Of a DNA stretch of 7,203 bases, positions 2,767-7,203 are shown in pieces. The notes beneath the pieces were generated by a model, which ran no database searches, was not told the DNA's origin, and saw only the letters and a program-made list of their open reading frames with translations. Every line of letters begins with the position of its first letter. Within the stretch, counting starts at the first letter, position 1. This DNA is from a virus. Taxonomy: Duplodnaviria > Heunggongvirae > Uroviricota > Caudoviricetes. The DNA lies in IMG/VR virus record IMGVR_UViG_3300018486_000146; one strand, given 5' to 3'. The translations under genes and the position numbers were made by a program.

Positions 2767-4959
2767 ATGTCCGATAGCAAACCATGGGGAGCTACGCCTG
2801 ATGAGTGGTTTCATTTCGACCTGGTATTGGGGAGAACTGATCATCTTCTCCCAGTTGTATGTAACCCCAGTGCGACCATATCCCCTGATAGTAAACTGAA
2901 AGCGTTGGGTAAGACGCCGAGTCGCTATAACCGGGACCGCCAGGTCACCGGTATTGCTCAATGGACCGGGCATGTTGTTACTGAGCATGATTTTGCCCGC
3001 TGGTCGAATGAACCGGATTATGGCATCTGCGTGCGTACAGGCCATGGCTGGCTGGCGCTGGACTGTGATAGCGAAGATGAAGACATTCATGCAGATATTC
3101 GCAAAACGCTTGTGCAACTTCTGGGTGAGTTGCCGCCGCGACGCTGGCGAGCAAACAGTAATAAGTGTCTGTATCTGCTGGCCGTTGATGGTGATTTCCG
3201 TAAGCGTATCCATCGCCTGGCGGGGGATATGGGCATTATCGAGTTGCTGGCGAACGGGCAGCAGTTCGTTGCCTGCGGTACGCACAGCAGCGGCGCGCGT
3301 ATTGAATGGGACGGCGGTTTGCCGGATGAACCTCCGGCTATTACTGGTGAGCAGCTTGAAACGCTGTGGCAGCGCCTGGCTGAACAACTCCCTGTGTCGG
3401 TAACCACCGAAGCGGGCAACACGAAGATGCGCGACCGATCAGCATTCACGCCCGGCGCGACGGATGATACAGCTGAATATCTTGATGCCAATGGCTGGAC
3501 GCTGCTGGATGGCGCAAATGGTGAACGATATATCCGCTGTCCGTTTGAAGACGGCCACAGTAGCGGGGGCGATCCAACAAGCACAGTTTATTTTCCTGCG
3601 GGAACCGCGGGCTTTGAGCAGGGGCATTTTAAATGCCTGCATGCCAGTTGTGCGCATCGTGATGACGGAGATTTCCTTAATGCCATCGGGATCCGCAACG
3701 ACGATTTCGAAGATCTGACCAGCACCGAAGTGGCGGAACCTTTACCGCTGCCTGCTTTCGAGCGTGATAAATGGGGGCGTATCGAGGCAACAATCAGCAA
3801 CGCAGCCAAAGCAGTAGTACGCCCTGATTTTGTGGACATCGATATTCGCTTTGACCAGTTCCGCGACGAAATCATGTTTGCCCCTGCAGGATCCGGACAA
3901 TGGCGGGCATTCACCGATGCGGATTATGCGCGCCTGCGCATCACGATGGAAAAGCGGGGATTTAAACCTGTTGGTCGTGAACTTATTCGCGATGTGGTGT
4001 TACTTGCAGCCGATGAACAACCATTCGATTCAGCGATCACCTGGCTGAACGGACTGGAGTGGGATGGCGTGCCGCGCATCGAATGTTTCTACCATACGCA
4101 CTTCGGTACAGCCGACACGCCTTATACCCGTGCGGTGTCTATGTACATGTGGACCGCGTTGGCGGGGCGAGTACTGGAGCCAGGCATCAAAGCGGATATG
4201 GTGCCGATCCTCGTTGGTCCGCAGGGCTGCGGTAAGTCTTCCGGAGTGGAGGCACTGAGCCCTGATCCTGCGTTTTTTACTGAAATCTCTTTTGCCGAAA
4301 AAGACGATGATCTCGCTCGAAAAATGCGTGGTCGGCTGGTGGCAGAGATTGGTGAACTGCGCGGACTTAATACCAAAGAGCTGGAGTCAATCAAAGCGTT
4401 TGTGACGCGTACTCACGAAAACTGGATCCCGAAATACCGGGAGTTCGCCACCCAGTTTCCTCGTCGCCTGGTGTTCGTTGGTACCACCAATGAGGACGAA
4501 TTCCTTGCGGACAAGACTGGTAACCGTCGCTGGCTCCCCGTGGAAGTGTCGAAAGTCGACGTGAAAGCGATAAAAAGAGATCTCCTTTTACTTTGGGCTG
4601 AGGCTCGTGAGGTGTTTCAGCGTCTGGGGGGTATCCAGTTCCGTGAGGCTGAACAACTGGCAGCGAGTGTCCATGAACAGTACACCATCAAGGATGCTTG
4701 GCTTGAAACGGTAGAGAAATGGCTCGACACGCCAGACCTGATGACTAATGAACTTCCGCGAAATTGCGAATTTTTACGCGCAAGTGATGTTTTGCGTGAT
4801 GCGATTGGGCTAAATCCTGACCGCATCGGAAAACGCGAAGAAATGCGAATTAGTAATGTTTTGCAAAATTGCGGGTATAAGCGTGCCCAAAGGCGAATTG
4901 GGGGGAAAATGACTCGAATTTTTGAGGCGGTGTCCCAACCTGTACCAACCTCAAAATAG
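2767..4959 (+). CDS. Replication initiator: primase-polymerase N-terminal domain, zinc-binding Cys/His cluster, and C-terminal P-loop SF3/D5/VirE-like helicase domain (730 aa)
   Basis: N-terminal DxD motif (LALDCDSEDED) and GTHSSG, consistent with prim-pol. Cys/His cluster CPFEDGH...HFKCLHASCAH. Walker A GPQGCGKSS and an SF3-like motif C (VFVGTTNE). Starts 6 bp after the cro stop. Iterons lie at and after its 3' end. Confidence 0.92.
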   Translation: MSDSKPWGATPDEWFHFDLVLGRTDHLLPVVCNPSATISPDSKLKALGKTPSRYNRDRQVTGIAQWTGHVVTEHDFARWSNEPDYGICVRTGHGWLALDCDSEDEDIHADIRKTLVQLLGELPPRRWRANSNKCLYLLAVDGDFRKRIHRLAGDMGIIELLANGQQFVACGTHSSGARIEWDGGLPDEPPAITGEQLETLWQRLAEQLPVSVTTEAGNTKMRDRSAFTPGATDDTAEYLDANGWTLLDGANGERYIRCPFEDGHSSGGDPTSTVYFPAGTAGFEQGHFKCLHASCAHRDDGDFLNAIGIRNDDFEDLTSTEVAEPLPLPAFERDKWGRIEATISNAAKAVVRPDFVDIDIRFDQFRDEIMFAPAGSGQWRAFTDADYARLRITMEKRGFKPVGRELIRDVVLLAADEQPFDSAITWLNGLEWDGVPRIECFYHTHFGTADTPYTRAVSMYMWTALAGRVLEPGIKADMVPILVGPQGCGKSSGVEALSPDPAFFTEISFAEKDDDLARKMRGRLVAEIGELRGLNTKELESIKAFVTRTHENWIPKYREFATQFPRRLVFVGTTNEDEFLADKTGNRRWLPVEVSKVDVKAIKRDLLLLWAEAREVFQRLGGIQFREAEQLAASVHEQYTIKDAWLETVEKWLDTPDLMTNELPRNCEFLRASDVLRDAIGLNPDRIGKREEMRISNVLQNCGYKRAQRRIGGKMTRIFEAVSQPVPTSK

Positions 4960-5240: not shown

Positions 5241-5663
5241 ATGCGTAATATTCAACAGGTTTTAGAGCGCTGGGGTGGCTGGGCAGCGAGTGAAGGTGGT
5301 AGCGTCTACTTTCCTCCTGTTGCAGCCGGGTTTAAGAATCTGCTACCCGCGACGCAGTCTGGAAGGCTGAAATGCAGTGACAATGACGGACTTATCATCA
5401 ACTCCGCTATGAGCTGCCTGAAGAAAAAAGATCCGTATCTGTGCACGCTCCTTGAGTGGCATTACGTCCAGGCCATGCCCGTGCGGGCGATGGGTGAGAA
5501 GCTCGGCGTATCTCACACCCACGTTCTGAAGAGGCTTCAGGCGGCAGAGGGATTTATTGACGGTTGCTTAGCCATGCTGGATGTGGTGCTCGAAATGGAT
5601 CAGTCGGTTCAGTCAAAGCCTCAGGCTATCAGGACTTTGCGTAGGAGCTGCTCGGCGGCATAA
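5241..5663 (+). CDS. Q: Late-gene antiterminator Q, phage 82 / QuuD family (140 aa)
   Basis: ATG 5241 with TAGAGG upstream. Motifs LERWGGWAA, AAGFKNL and KRLQAAEGFIDGCLAMLDVVLEMD align with the E. coli DLP12 QuuD antiterminator as recalled (LERWGAWAA, AAGFKGL, KRLQKAEGIIEGMLMALDIRLEMD). Confidence 0.82.
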   Translation: MRNIQQVLERWGGWAASEGGSVYFPPVAAGFKNLLPATQSGRLKCSDNDGLIINSAMSCLKKKDPYLCTLLEWHYVQAMPVRAMGEKLGVSHTHVLKRLQAAEGFIDGCLAMLDVVLEMDQSVQSKPQAIRTLRRSCSAA

Positions 5664-5664
5664 T
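5637..5664 (+). promoter_or_regulatory. Candidate late promoter pR' at the 3' end of Q (-35 TTGCGT, 16-bp spacer, -10 CATAAT); tentative
   Basis: This is the position where lambdoid pR' promoters sit, immediately after Q. The hexamers are only moderate matches and no Q-utilisation or pause element could be verified by eye. An alternative location is the AT-rich 6128-6357 region. Confidence 0.25.
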
Positions 5665-5694
5665 ATCCAGCAATCAATCACGTAAGGGAACCAG

Positions 5695-6036
5695 ATGGCT
5701 CTGATCAGCGTTCGCAACAGATTTGAAAGCTTCATGGAACAGAGGTACCCAGACCTGTCGTTGCAGGTCAAAGGTAATATTAGCGCATCAATGAAGGCTC
5801 AACTTGGCATCAGGATTGAACGAGAATTGTACAGTGAAGATGTTACTTACTGTGATTCAGCAGTTCAGTTGATGTGGACACTCTTTCAGGCAGGTGTTCT
5901 GGCCGAACGAAGAGCTACCAGCGTTACGCTTCCTGCGCTGAAGGCAAAGCCGGATAGCTTCTACGATGCGGGTTATAACGAAGGTATTCAGGACTGTCGT
6001 AAACATCTGACGGCATCAGGCATCAAGGTAAGATAA
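5695..6036 (+). CDS. Hypothetical protein, 113 aa, in the Q-to-lysis (stx-equivalent) cargo slot; function unknown
   Basis: ATG 5695 with AAGGGAA upstream. The protein is not low-complexity and no transmembrane segment or signal peptide is obvious. An intrinsic terminator follows about 70 bp downstream. No family recognised. Confidence 0.6.
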   Translation: MALISVRNRFESFMEQRYPDLSLQVKGNISASMKAQLGIRIERELYSEDVTYCDSAVQLMWTLFQAGVLAERRATSVTLPALKAKPDSFYDAGYNEGIQDCRKHLTASGIKVR

Positions 6037-6103
6037 AAAATAGTTGTGGAATTCCAAAAAGCCGATTAGCCTGATATCCGTTGAAAACAGTTCATCACGA
6101 AGA

Positions 6104-6127
6104 GGCTTCCGCAAGGGGGCCTTTTTT
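6104..6127 (+). terminator. Intrinsic terminator downstream of the 113-aa ORF
   Basis: GGCTTCC-GCAA-GGGGGCC forms a 7-bp stem (5 Watson-Crick and 2 G-U pairs) with a GNRA tetraloop, followed by TTTTTT. Confidence 0.6.
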
Positions 6128-6357
6128 ATTGCCCCATTCTGGGGAAAAGTTAATAAAACAGGGCTTTCGCTGCGAAAAAACGCTATGCAGTTTTTGCCCT
6201 TTTTTATGCACCTTTTATTCACTCGAATTTCGTCATTCTGGACCACTTAAGTTGATTAAATAGTCCTTTCATCGCAAATCTATTGCGAGCGGGGATCGTG
6301 TGGTTCCTATAACGTACATTATGTTAAATAACTTCCTTTTTTAACAAATTTAACAAG

Positions 6358-6380
6358 GTTCGCTATGGCGAACTTTTTTT
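6358..6380 (+). terminator. Strong intrinsic terminator upstream of the lysis genes, a tR'-like candidate
   Basis: GTTCGC-tatg-GCGAAC is a perfect 6-bp stem with a 4-nt loop, followed by seven T. It lies about 100 bp upstream of the holin start. Confidence 0.7.
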
Positions 6381-6481
6381 GTATTCAGGGCCCACCGAAG
6401 GACGGCTCATAACCCAATCCTACGGGCGTATACGCAGGGCCCGCCTTTCAACAACACCCCGTAATGGCGGAGGTGGGAAGT

Positions 6482-6823
6482 ATGAAAATGCACAATGCTC
6501 CTCATTCCTGGCCTGACTTACTGGAACTCTTACAAAGTTGGTGGCGTGGAGATACGCCGTTGGGCGCAGTGGTTATGTCAATTGTTATGGCTGGCTTGCG
6601 CATTGCCTATTTTGGCGGTGGCGGCGGCTGGAAACGAAAAACGCTTGAGATTTTGCTCTGTGGTGCTCTGACGCTGACTTTTGCATCCGCTCTTGAGTAT
6701 GTCGGATGGCCTAAATCGCTTTCTGTTGCCATTGGTGGTGGTGTTGGGCTGATCGGTGTCGATGCTATTCGTGGGGCTGCAATGCGAGTAATCGGTAACA
6801 AATTTGGTGGCTCTAAGGAGTAA
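6482..6823 (+). CDS. Holin, 113 aa, three predicted transmembrane segments, with a Met-Lys-Met dual-start motif (possible holin/antiholin pair)
   Basis: GGAGGTGGG at 6469-6477 precedes ATG 6482, AAA, ATG 6488. Hydrophobic segments LGAVVMSIVMAGLRIAYF, LEILLCGALTLTFASALEYV and SLSVAIGGGVGLIGVDAI. The stop lies 3 nt before the endolysin start. The ORF-track start at 6464 falls inside the Shine-Dalgarno and was rejected. Not similar to lambda S by eye. Confidence 0.8.
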   Translation: MKMHNAPHSWPDLLELLQSWWRGDTPLGAVVMSIVMAGLRIAYFGGGGGWKRKTLEILLCGALTLTFASALEYVGWPKSLSVAIGGGVGLIGVDAIRGAAMRVIGNKFGGSKE

Positions 6824-6826
6824 TTT

Positions 6827-7203
6827 ATGCAGGTACTAAATTCCCAGCGTAAAGCTTTCCTGGATATGGTGGCATGGTCAGAAGGAACGGATAACGGGCG
6901 ACAACCGACACGTAACCACGGTTATGACGTTATTGTTGGTGGTGAACTGTTTACTGATTACTCCGATCATCCTCACAAACTTGTCACGCTAAACCCGAAA
7001 CTTAAATCAACAGCTGCCGGACGTTATCAGCTTCTTTCCCGTTGGTGGGATGCTTACCGTAAACAGCTTGGTTTGAAAGACTTCTCCCCCAAAAGCCAGG
7101 ACGCTGTGGCATTGCAGCAGATTAAAGAGCGTGGCGCTTTACCGATGATTGATCGCGGTGATATTCGTCAGGCTATCGACCGTTGCAGCAATATCTGGGC
7201 TTC
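6827..7203 (+). CDS. R: Endolysin, lambda R-type lytic transglycosylase, 5' portion (truncated by window end)
   Basis: AAGGAG 6 nt upstream of ATG 6827. The translation MQVLNSQRKAFLDMVAWSEGTDNGRQPTRNHGYDVIVGGELFTDYSDHP...RCSNIWA is nearly identical to lambda R as recalled, including the catalytic-glutamate motif AWSEGTD. The open frame runs to the window end. Confidence 0.95.
   Translation, partial: MQVLNSQRKAFLDMVAWSEGTDNGRQPTRNHGYDVIVGGELFTDYSDHPHKLVTLNPKLKSTAAGRYQLLSRWWDAYRKQLGLKDFSPKSQDAVALQQIKERGALPMIDRGDIRQAIDRCSNIWA

Follow-up and report, generated by a model that had tools for sequence, protein, structure and literature searches.

We studied the interval 6037-6481 of a 7,203-nucleotide (nt) stretch of viral DNA, IMG/VR record IMGVR_UViG_3300018486_000146; the whole stretch is referred to here as the window. 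The window belongs to a temperate E. coli phage. It carries a cI-like repressor gene on the minus strand (1804-2478), a cro-like gene (2530-2760), a VapE-type primase/helicase gene (2767-4959), a gene for a Q antiterminator of the 933W type and the Q21 family (5241-5663, plus strand), the accessory open reading frame ORF113 (5695-6036, plus strand), a holin gene (6482-6823, plus strand) and a GH24 endolysin gene that begins at 6827. The interval between ORF113 and the holin, a Q-dependent late control region of the ordinary kind with homology to its counterpart in the Shiga-toxin (Stx) phages, holds in order a putative late promoter (pR'), an intrinsic terminator, an AT-rich spacer, a second terminator and a Y-shaped RNA.

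Q and the conserved block downstream of it

The stretch 5600-6500 was matched in 139 of 5,426 complete E. coli genomes, every time on the chromosome, and in four deposited phage genomes, vB_EcoM-606R2, -689R2, -611R5 and -683R1 (97.9% identity over 68% of the query). Of these, 606R2 and 611R5, deposited as complete phage genomes, contain the same region. Among bacterial strains it is also carried by E. coli O103:H2 12009 and ETEC H10407. For comparison we gathered Q homologues with their flanks, 80 from IMG/VR loci and 80 from one-genome-per-species bacterial assemblies; the set searched with the block profile described below comprised 163 fetched loci and the window, 164 sequences in total.

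The gene upstream of the interval does encode a Q antiterminator, as the original prediction had it: its product matched PF06530 over all 118 profile positions (E = 5e-42) and was 42% identical to the Q of VT2-Sakai (E = 6e-34). PF06530 is the Q21 family (PMC9388147), and a Q of this family is what marks a Q21/933W antitermination cassette. The same profile also scored the Sakai Q, which covers all 118 positions, and Q21, which covers only positions 3-90. A profile built from 13 relatives of the window's Q matched the Q21 chains in the Protein Data Bank (6jnx and 6p18) with E = 1.5e-7, at residues 8-86 only. From these sequence matches we assign the window's Q to the 933W branch of the Q21 family. 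Since the homology to Q21 is confined to the body of the protein, the two share that body and the overall plan, while the DNA-binding module and the architecture of the site differ.

Several relatives whose Q is 52-71% identical have a common block adjoining the Q stop codon. Its plan is TTGyGk-AATTmCAAAA, seven bases, TAnnnT and about 40 nt that include G(A/T)TAAGAGTGG and CACAnAGCTTA, followed by an intrinsic terminator. An nhmmer profile of the block matched 134 of the 164 sequences, always on the Q (plus) strand, downstream of Q and once per locus, in 79 distinct versions. The first, second and sixth bases of the -10 hexamer (T, A and T) were invariant in all 79, and the three interior bases were variable. 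The block also bears the signature of a promoter, with 17 base pairs (bp) between -35 and -10 and an A-rich upstream flank. In many loci its start falls within a range from 38 nt upstream to 48 nt downstream of the Q stop, and elsewhere it lies 343-2,736 nt past the stop, behind inserted genes.

A profile made without the window's own clade matched the window only at 6042-6076 on the plus strand (E = 1.8e-7). Here the block stands after ORF113 and not at the Q stop, and the first terminator follows it. It consists of an A-rich stretch (6034-6043), a -35 hexamer TTGTGG (6044-6049), the 17-nt spacer AATTCCAAAAAGCCGAT and a -10 hexamer TAGCCT (6067-6072), all on the plus strand. By its homology, the segment 6044-6072 would be the late promoter, situated past Q and ahead of the late genes, and transcription would start near 6079, within the range 6076-6080.

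The original prediction had placed pR' elsewhere, either at the end of Q or in the spacer, and the motifs that it named are present: TTGCGT-N16-CATAAT (5637-5664), TTGCGA-N19-TATAAC and an extended -10, TGTTAAATA. Were pR' to overlap the end of Q at 5637-5664, ORF113 would be the first Q-controlled gene and the first terminator would be tR', about 450 nt on. The hexamers there (3/6 and 5/6) are nearer to consensus than those of 6044-6072, the block does overlap the Q stop in several relatives, and the motif is retained in the 91%-identical Q of locus L024. However, 5637-5664 is Q coding sequence conserved only within the window's clade, and the type-A Q genes of L025-L030, L084 and L086 have other C-termini from which the motif is absent. 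It has neither a palindrome nor any element that co-varies with Q type, the leave-clade-out profile found no match there, and relatives with a homologue of ORF113 have the block after that gene, not before it. We consider a promoter at this position very improbable.

ORF113 itself would be expressed with Q from the early transcript. Homologues stand behind Q in L024-L028, and in L025-L028 they come ahead of the pR' block. Among the 139 E. coli matches, coverage of 5600-6500 reached 80% in only 62, ORF113 being present in some prophage copies and nearly gone in others (window 5695-6036; L001:3057-3152). A deletion of about 286 bp removes almost all of it from all four deposited phage genomes (606R2, 689R2, 611R5 and 683R1), and in 611R5, where it is almost wholly deleted, the pR' block is retained. 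The product matched no Pfam family and two PHROGs groups, 37465 and 343, both of unknown function. One RefSeq record labels it a 'phiTE_015 family protein'.

A palindrome that changes with the Q recognition helix

The -35 hexamer and the first half of the promoter spacer are overlapped by a 16-bp near-palindrome, TTGTGGAATTCCAAAA (6044-6059, plus strand), whose core, TGGAATTCCA, spans 6047-6056 and whose dyad falls between 6051 and 6052. The window has a single copy of the pattern, against 0.16 expected by chance at up to 3 mismatches. We compared palindromes with the recognition helices of the accompanying Q proteins in 73 rows, 70 of which fell into six palindrome types; 65 rows were distinct and had a readable helix region. 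Each type went with one helix class in 65 of 65. The window's palindrome type, GGAATTCC, accompanies the helix LG(V/I)SHT.VLKRLQ (in the window itself, LGVSHTHVLKRLQ), GTAATTAC accompanies SHN(E/Q)V.KRLQ, and GTTATAAC accompanies SLNQVVIRLQ. The remaining pairs are GCGGnCCGC with KKDEK.IR.E.Q, TTTACG(TA/AT)CGTAAA with CSD(T/G)HIGK(R/K)LQ, and CGyTACG with LKLNEARIR. Every change between types is symmetric on both arms, and the distance of 15 nt from the dyad to the -10 downstream is constant.

Loci L166 and L169 have the leader, first terminator and spacer of the window type, yet they carry a type-D Q together with a type-D palindrome. These mosaics indicate that the palindrome travels with Q and not with the sequence downstream. 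Since palindrome type matches helix class, the palindrome is the likely Q-binding site, and the comparative evidence that it is the Q site is strong; Q would thus bind an element inside the promoter.

Such a site is not of the Q21 type. PR'21 has two direct TGAGCA repeats at -25 to -20 and -17 to -12 that are bound by Q21 (PMC6606751), an arrangement with an 8-bp period; the window has the palindrome at -35 to -20 and no direct repeat of 8-bp period. The difference in form and position suggests that the loading geometry of Q21 is not simply transferable, and the symmetry of the palindrome would imply dimeric loading, unlike the tandem mode of Q21.

Terminators, spacer and proposed read-through into the lysis genes

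Two intrinsic terminators lie between the promoter block and the late genes, and both precede the holin at 6482. The promoter-proximal one, T1 (6099-6127, plus strand, about +21 to +48), has a 12-bp stem at 6099-6126 and a run of six T (6121-6126); its folding energy of -17.1 kcal/mol (z = -4.4) was equalled by none of 200 shuffled sequences. Relatives carry compensatory variants of its stem (GGCTCCC/GGGGGCC, GGCTCTC..GAGGGCC and GGCTCCCGTGTGGGGGC), and a strict hairpin with a T-run was found past the start in 58 of the 79 distinct blocks, the T-run beginning at a median of +56. The second, T2 (6355-6380, plus strand, about +277 to +302), has a 9-bp stem at 6355-6376 and seven T (6374-6380), at -10.4 kcal/mol (z = -3.3). 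Relatives have other sequences at this site that still form a hairpin with a T-run, such as GGGCTCGC-TTCG-GCGGGCC and GGTCGCC-ACCG-GGCGGCC. T2 is the positional analogue of the tR' of Stx phages (+258). The terminators first noticed at 6104-6127 and 6358-6380 lie inside T1 and T2. A third hairpin (6160-6205), flanked by T-runs on both strands, may be an additional terminator on the plus strand and may also end an RNA made from the minus strand; by itself it was no better than chance (-14.6 kcal/mol, z = -1.5). The equivalent hairpin in Yersinia phage YP3, AGCGTT..AACGCT, has a run of eight U on the minus strand only.

With two terminators ahead of the holin and a Q antiterminator gene upstream, the lysis genes would need Q read-through. 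This need had been proposed for at least the second terminator; with pR' upstream of T1, both would be under Q control. Early transcription from the cro side would pass through the primase gene, Q and ORF113 and stop at T1, which thus probably ends the early Q-ORF113 transcript as well. Without Q, polymerase from pR' would stop at T1, giving an RNA of about 48 nt, and any that leaked past T1 would stop at T2, giving about 300 nt. Q would recognise the 16-bp palindrome at 6044-6059, probably as a symmetric dimer, and load onto polymerase early in transcription. By analogy with Q21 it would make polymerase resistant to hairpin terminators, and the modified enzyme would pass T1, hairpin 3 and T2 into the holin, endolysin, Rz and structural genes. 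For the window this amounts to a correction: the late start would be placed, both terminators would be Q-controlled, and ORF113 would move to the early transcript.

The promoter block has a counterpart with mapped ends. VT2-Sakai has a type-E copy, TTTACGATCGTAAAAATCTGCA TATCAT GATAAG A GTGG..., and Sy et al. placed the PR' start, by differential RNA sequencing (dRNA-seq), and the 3' end at tR', by Term-seq, 258 nt apart in Sakai (PMC7547250). Counted in the Sakai sequence, the stretch between the A that stands seven nt after TATCAT and the final T of the tR' run measures exactly 258 nt as well, so that the named tR' of Sakai is the second terminator, at +258. Given the block homology, the co-variation of palindrome and Q, the terminators and the gene order, we put the probability of a late control region with pR' at 6044-6072, Q acting at the palindrome and read-through into the lysis genes at roughly 80%.

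Several observations weigh against this reading. The promoter matches the sigma-70 consensus at 6 of 12 positions (TTGTGG 3/6, TAGCCT 3/6), for which reason the original prediction overlooked it, and a sigma-70 promoter scan did not list 6044-6072. The aligned +1 is a pyrimidine, C6079 in the window and in most E. coli copies a T; transcription may thus really begin at a nearby purine, 6076 or 6080. Past the -10 the window's clade lacks the G(A/T)TAAGAGTGG of most relatives and has GATATC(C/T)GTTG instead. When the -10-like registers in +1 to +30 of the 79 blocks were inspected by eye for a sigma-dependent pause element, none was conserved and no nAnnnT kept its position, and the pause-like candidates in the window are TATCCG (6075-6080) and AACAGT (6086-6091), the latter at chance level. 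The palindrome differs from the direct-repeat site of Q21 and lies about 9 bp farther upstream. The published Sakai transcription start, 1,266,203, is 142 nt off the predicted +1 in NC_002695.2, presumably through a version offset; the absolute coordinates being unmatched, only the 258-nt spacing was compared. Finally, the 258-nt RNA of Sakai is made without Q, and the promoter-proximal hairpin therefore evidently leaks. On the pause step, relatives have a conserved TAAGAG at -4 to +2, its final base G, where the window has TATCCG. The distance from the right half of the palindrome to TAAGAG is 17 bp, the same as from the left half to the -10, and this equal spacing may bear on such a step.

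Between T1 and T2 the DNA is AT-rich, as originally noted, with a GC content of 0.34-0.38 over 6150-6400 and about 0.50 in both flanks. The segment 6150-6383 is a conserved non-coding module. It recurs in prophages of different Q type (L164-L174), in YP3 and in L171, L229 and L236; an unrelated ORF stands upstream of it in YP3, L171 and L229, and virion genes come after it in YP3 and L171. Its invariant core of 48 nt (6178-6225) is nearly identical in YP3, L171, L229 and L164-L174, while the flanks diverge. Within the core, 6204-6212 and 6216-6224 are two direct 8/9 matches to the DnaA-box consensus. A second, nearly invariant core (6315-6352) holds the inverted repeat TGTTAAA-N11-TTTAACA (6322-6346), which occurs once in the window against a chance expectation of 0.00. 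Both arms are conserved across relatives and the 7 nt between them are variable. The repeat coincides with a minus-strand sigma-70-like promoter, TTGTTA-N18-CATAAT (6318-6347), which scored 9/12 in the scan.

The spacer was the other place originally proposed for pR'. A Q-responsive promoter, or a second promoter-terminator cassette, could use the extended -10 TGTTAAATA (6322-6330), with T2 ending an RNA of about 45 nt; in its favour, distant phages retain TTATGTTAAATA together with the sequence around it, and a terminator closes the module just ahead of the virion genes in YP3 and L171, which is reminiscent of such a cassette. However, TGTTAAATA has no acceptable -35 at 17 bp (GGTTCC / GGTGCC) and lacks the final T of a -10; it is one arm of the conserved inverted repeat, which serves better as a minus-strand promoter (4/6 and 5/6). 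The other candidate, TTGCGA-N19-TATAAC, is not conserved, relatives having TGGCGA...GATAAC. The module carries no Q-type-specific element, and it is also found in YP3, where neither a Q gene nor a pR' block was seen in the 5.5 kb examined. The chance that such a promoter or cassette lies in the spacer is in our view slim.

The spacer may instead serve as a small RNA (sRNA) gene, in addition to the late control described above. One form would be a minus-strand RNA of 110-160 nt, running from the promoter at 6347-6318, with a start near 6311, to hairpin 3. The other would be a plus-strand RNA derived from pR' and ended by T2, with processing like that of StxS or PasA; the layout for it is a pR' start at 6079 and an end at T2 (6380), and by analogy a leader RNA from the spacer is plausible. 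There are precedents for sRNAs at the position between Q and holin, namely StxS (PMC7547250) and PasA, PasC and PasD (bioRxiv 10.64898/2026.05.13.724894). The 48-nt core is far more conserved than its flanks, a U/A-rich single-stranded stretch precedes T2, the minus-strand promoter pattern is conserved, and in YP3 a terminator is present on the minus strand only. Set against these are the lack of consistent covariation in the body of either RNA, the weaker -10 of YP3 (CATAAG) and the missing -35 side in L229; given its two DnaA-box-like 9-mers, the invariant core could be a protein-binding site instead. RNAalifold gave no convincing common fold for the spacer on either strand. No Rfam family was found at E <= 1 for the whole window or E <= 10 for 6030-6490, with only terminator-shaped chance matches in the interval; inspection by eye showed no resemblance to the PR'-tR' (StxS) region of Sakai, and no RefSeq feature covers the spacer. 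We regard an sRNA gene here as a serious possibility, at somewhat short of even odds.

Coding candidates in the spacer were set aside. Its small ORFs (68, 60 and 76 codons' worth of amino acids) had no Pfam match, and a 21-amino-acid peptide over the invariant core was rejected on the substitutions in relatives, which are non-conservative and ignore codon position.

A Y-shaped RNA, the holin start and related systems

Between T2 and the holin lies a predicted Y-shaped RNA of three helices (6388-6442, plus strand). Helix P1 pairs GGGCCC with GGGCCC (6388-6393 with 6437-6442), the long arm ends in the loop CUCAUAA (6406-6412), set as GG-CUCAUAA-CC and closed by G-C pairs, and helix P3 is GCG-TATA-CGC. 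Over 13 distinct sequences 99.6% of cells were paired and 4 pairs had changed on both sides. None of 500 shuffles reached the covariation score, and sliding the partners lowered pairing to 22-47%. One U-G wobble fits the plus strand only. The GGGCCC repeat had been suggested, with a CCGCC/GGCGG pairing (6441-6445 with 6466-6470), to regulate the choice of holin start. The repeat is real, being helix P1 of the covarying RNA, and the CCGCC/GGCGG pairing would compete with it.

The top of the hairpin, GGCUCAUAACCCAAU, was found in at least 40 distinct prophage contexts, many with compensatory basal stems. In Q-associated loci it always stands after the last terminator before the lysis genes, and it occurs behind at least three unrelated genes in the antiterminator (Q) position. 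A covariance model of the Y-shaped RNA had no match in 100 other Q-anchored loci, which indicates that the RNA travels with the type of late region and not with Q. It matched no Rfam family, and a search for a cis pairing partner of the CUCAUAA loop gave nothing outstanding. The loop and the G-C pairs that close it resemble the anticodon arm of initiator tRNA (tRNA-fMet). A tRNA gene was considered and rejected: ARAGORN found none in the window or in 42 loci with the element, which has no D arm and no T-loop. The hairpin may act in processing, as a signal for trimming the terminated leader, or it may serve as a decoy or mimic for a factor that reads the initiator anticodon arm.

No account of a palindromic Q site or a Y-shaped RNA of this kind turned up in the literature searched, in which older work on Q is thinly covered. 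Taken jointly, the proposals that the 933W-branch Q site is an undescribed palindrome with a six-class helix code and dimeric loading, and that an initiator-anticodon-arm-like hairpin, GGCUCAUAACCC, recurs in many enterobacterial prophages, immediately behind terminators under processive antitermination and immediately ahead of the first gene to be translated, are tentative, and we think it unlikely that both will hold in full.

Two further structures were seen in this context. A second, larger hairpin family with the top GGGCUCAUAACCC occurs at L246:3289-3650 (minus strand) and at about 60 similar IMG/VR loci. It lies in the early region of prophages, with an integrase gene and a YfdR-like gene adjacent. 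In each case an STnc100-like RNA (38 bits, E = 7.5e-7) and the terminator behind it come immediately before the hairpin, and GGAGAAACUAAC and the next gene immediately after. The closing pairs of this hairpin are GGG/CCC, as they are in the initiator-tRNA anticodon arm. Separately, many prophages, L166, L165, L169, L176, L183 and L189 among them, have past the Y-shaped RNA a second conserved long-range pairing, CAGGCTCCGGG ... CCCGTGAAGCCTG, about 30 nt on in L166, which the window is without; L166 also carries an IsrI sRNA (RF01392, 101 bits) farther downstream.

The holin belongs to the lambda S family (PF05106, E = 1.2e-27) and has the Met-Lys-Met motif of a dual-start holin. Its RefSeq start is position 6482, where ATGAAAATG occupies 6482-6490. 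In the fold of lowest energy the Shine-Dalgarno region pairs with CACCCCG (6455-6462), not through CCGCC/GGCGG, forming a candidate sdi-like hairpin, CACCCCGU with GCGG-GGUG (6455-6475, plus strand), over the Shine-Dalgarno sequence GGAGG (6469-6473). The fold of 6444-6500, at -15.0 kcal/mol (z = -1.6), was matched in stability by 12 of 200 shuffles, and relatives show no sequence variation here. Lambda has CCCC-UUAU-UGGGG at the same place.

We compared the region with known late control systems. The window shares with the Stx phages 933W and VT2-Sakai (Sp5) the Pfam family and full-length architecture of Q at that 42% identity, a palindrome with an A-tract over the -35, a TAnnnT -10 with the start 7 nt later, a proximal hairpin at about +25 to +50, and a second terminator 250-300 nt downstream followed by late genes. 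It differs from them in its palindrome (TTTACGATCGTAAA there, GGAATTCC here) and the recognition helix that goes with it, in an initial transcribed sequence without TAAGAGTGG, and in a spacer without sequence similarity to StxS. Unlike them it has ORF113 inserted between Q and pR', lacks tRNA and stx genes, and goes straight on to the holin. At L079 and L081, about 70-130 nt past the Q stop, we saw a tRNA-like sequence after the proximal terminator, ending GGGTTCGAAT; Stx phages and phage SfI likewise have tRNA genes after PR'.

The system of Q21 has in common with the window the Pfam family, the N-terminal body of Q (E = 1.5e-7), a Q site inside the promoter and a terminator about 50 nt after the start, the last read in SfI, whose PR'21-type sequence has the TGAGCA repeats, a -10-like TAAGCT at +2 to +7 and a terminator that ends at about +50. 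The two would also share a nozzle mechanism. Q21, however, binds its direct repeats with a helix-turn-[loop]-helix, whereas the window has a plain helix-turn-helix and a palindrome at -35 to -20; no equivalent of the clear -10-like TAAGCT was identified in the window. With lambda the window shares the logic and gene order (a Q, a constitutive late promoter, a short terminated RNA, then the lysis cassette), the holin family with its Met-Lys-Met dual start and, as predicted here, a C-rich/G-rich hairpin over the ribosome-binding site. In contrast, the Q of lambda is from the unrelated family PF03589 and a single tR' lies at +194; relative to lambda sdi, the window's hairpin has no statistical or comparative support. 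PasA, PasC and PasD, prophage sRNAs of pathogenic E. coli, occupy the same position, adjoining the holin-lysozyme operon downstream of Q, and end in an intrinsic terminator, PasA coming from a longer transcript; they differ in being linked to a lambda-type Q (PF03589), and no sequence relation between them and the spacer was seen, though no search aimed at one was made.

Three of these proposals, the code of Q-site palindromes, the hairpin RNA resembling initiator tRNA and the conserved module in the spacer, were drawn from comparison of sequences. The comparison also provides a map, open to test, of late promoters and Q sites for many enterobacterial prophages, including Stx phages, where PR' drives the toxin. 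The helix-to-palindrome code could predict which Q acts on which prophage in strains with several prophages, and the Y-shaped RNA and spacer module would be candidate phage regulatory RNAs at a place where the StxS and Pas sRNAs act on host regulation.

Two features outside the interval were also noted. Between a 60-amino-acid ORF and the repressor gene, on the minus strand at 1226-1335, lies an RprA-like small RNA (Rfam RF00034, 50.5 bits against a gathering score of 70, E = 2.4e-4), whose 3' half, seed-like AAUUGCUGUGUGUAGUCUUUGCCCG and terminator included, is nearly identical to the RprA consensus. RprA and StxS reportedly share an rpoS site (PMC7547250), so that an RprA-like RNA carried by a prophage may be of relevance. 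The divergent intergenic region between repressor and cro (2470-2530) contains the palindromes AACAATTTTTGTT and ACAAACCTCGTTTGT, which are probable operators. The inverted repeat of the late leader, when compared with these immunity operators (2479-2529), proved unrelated to them.

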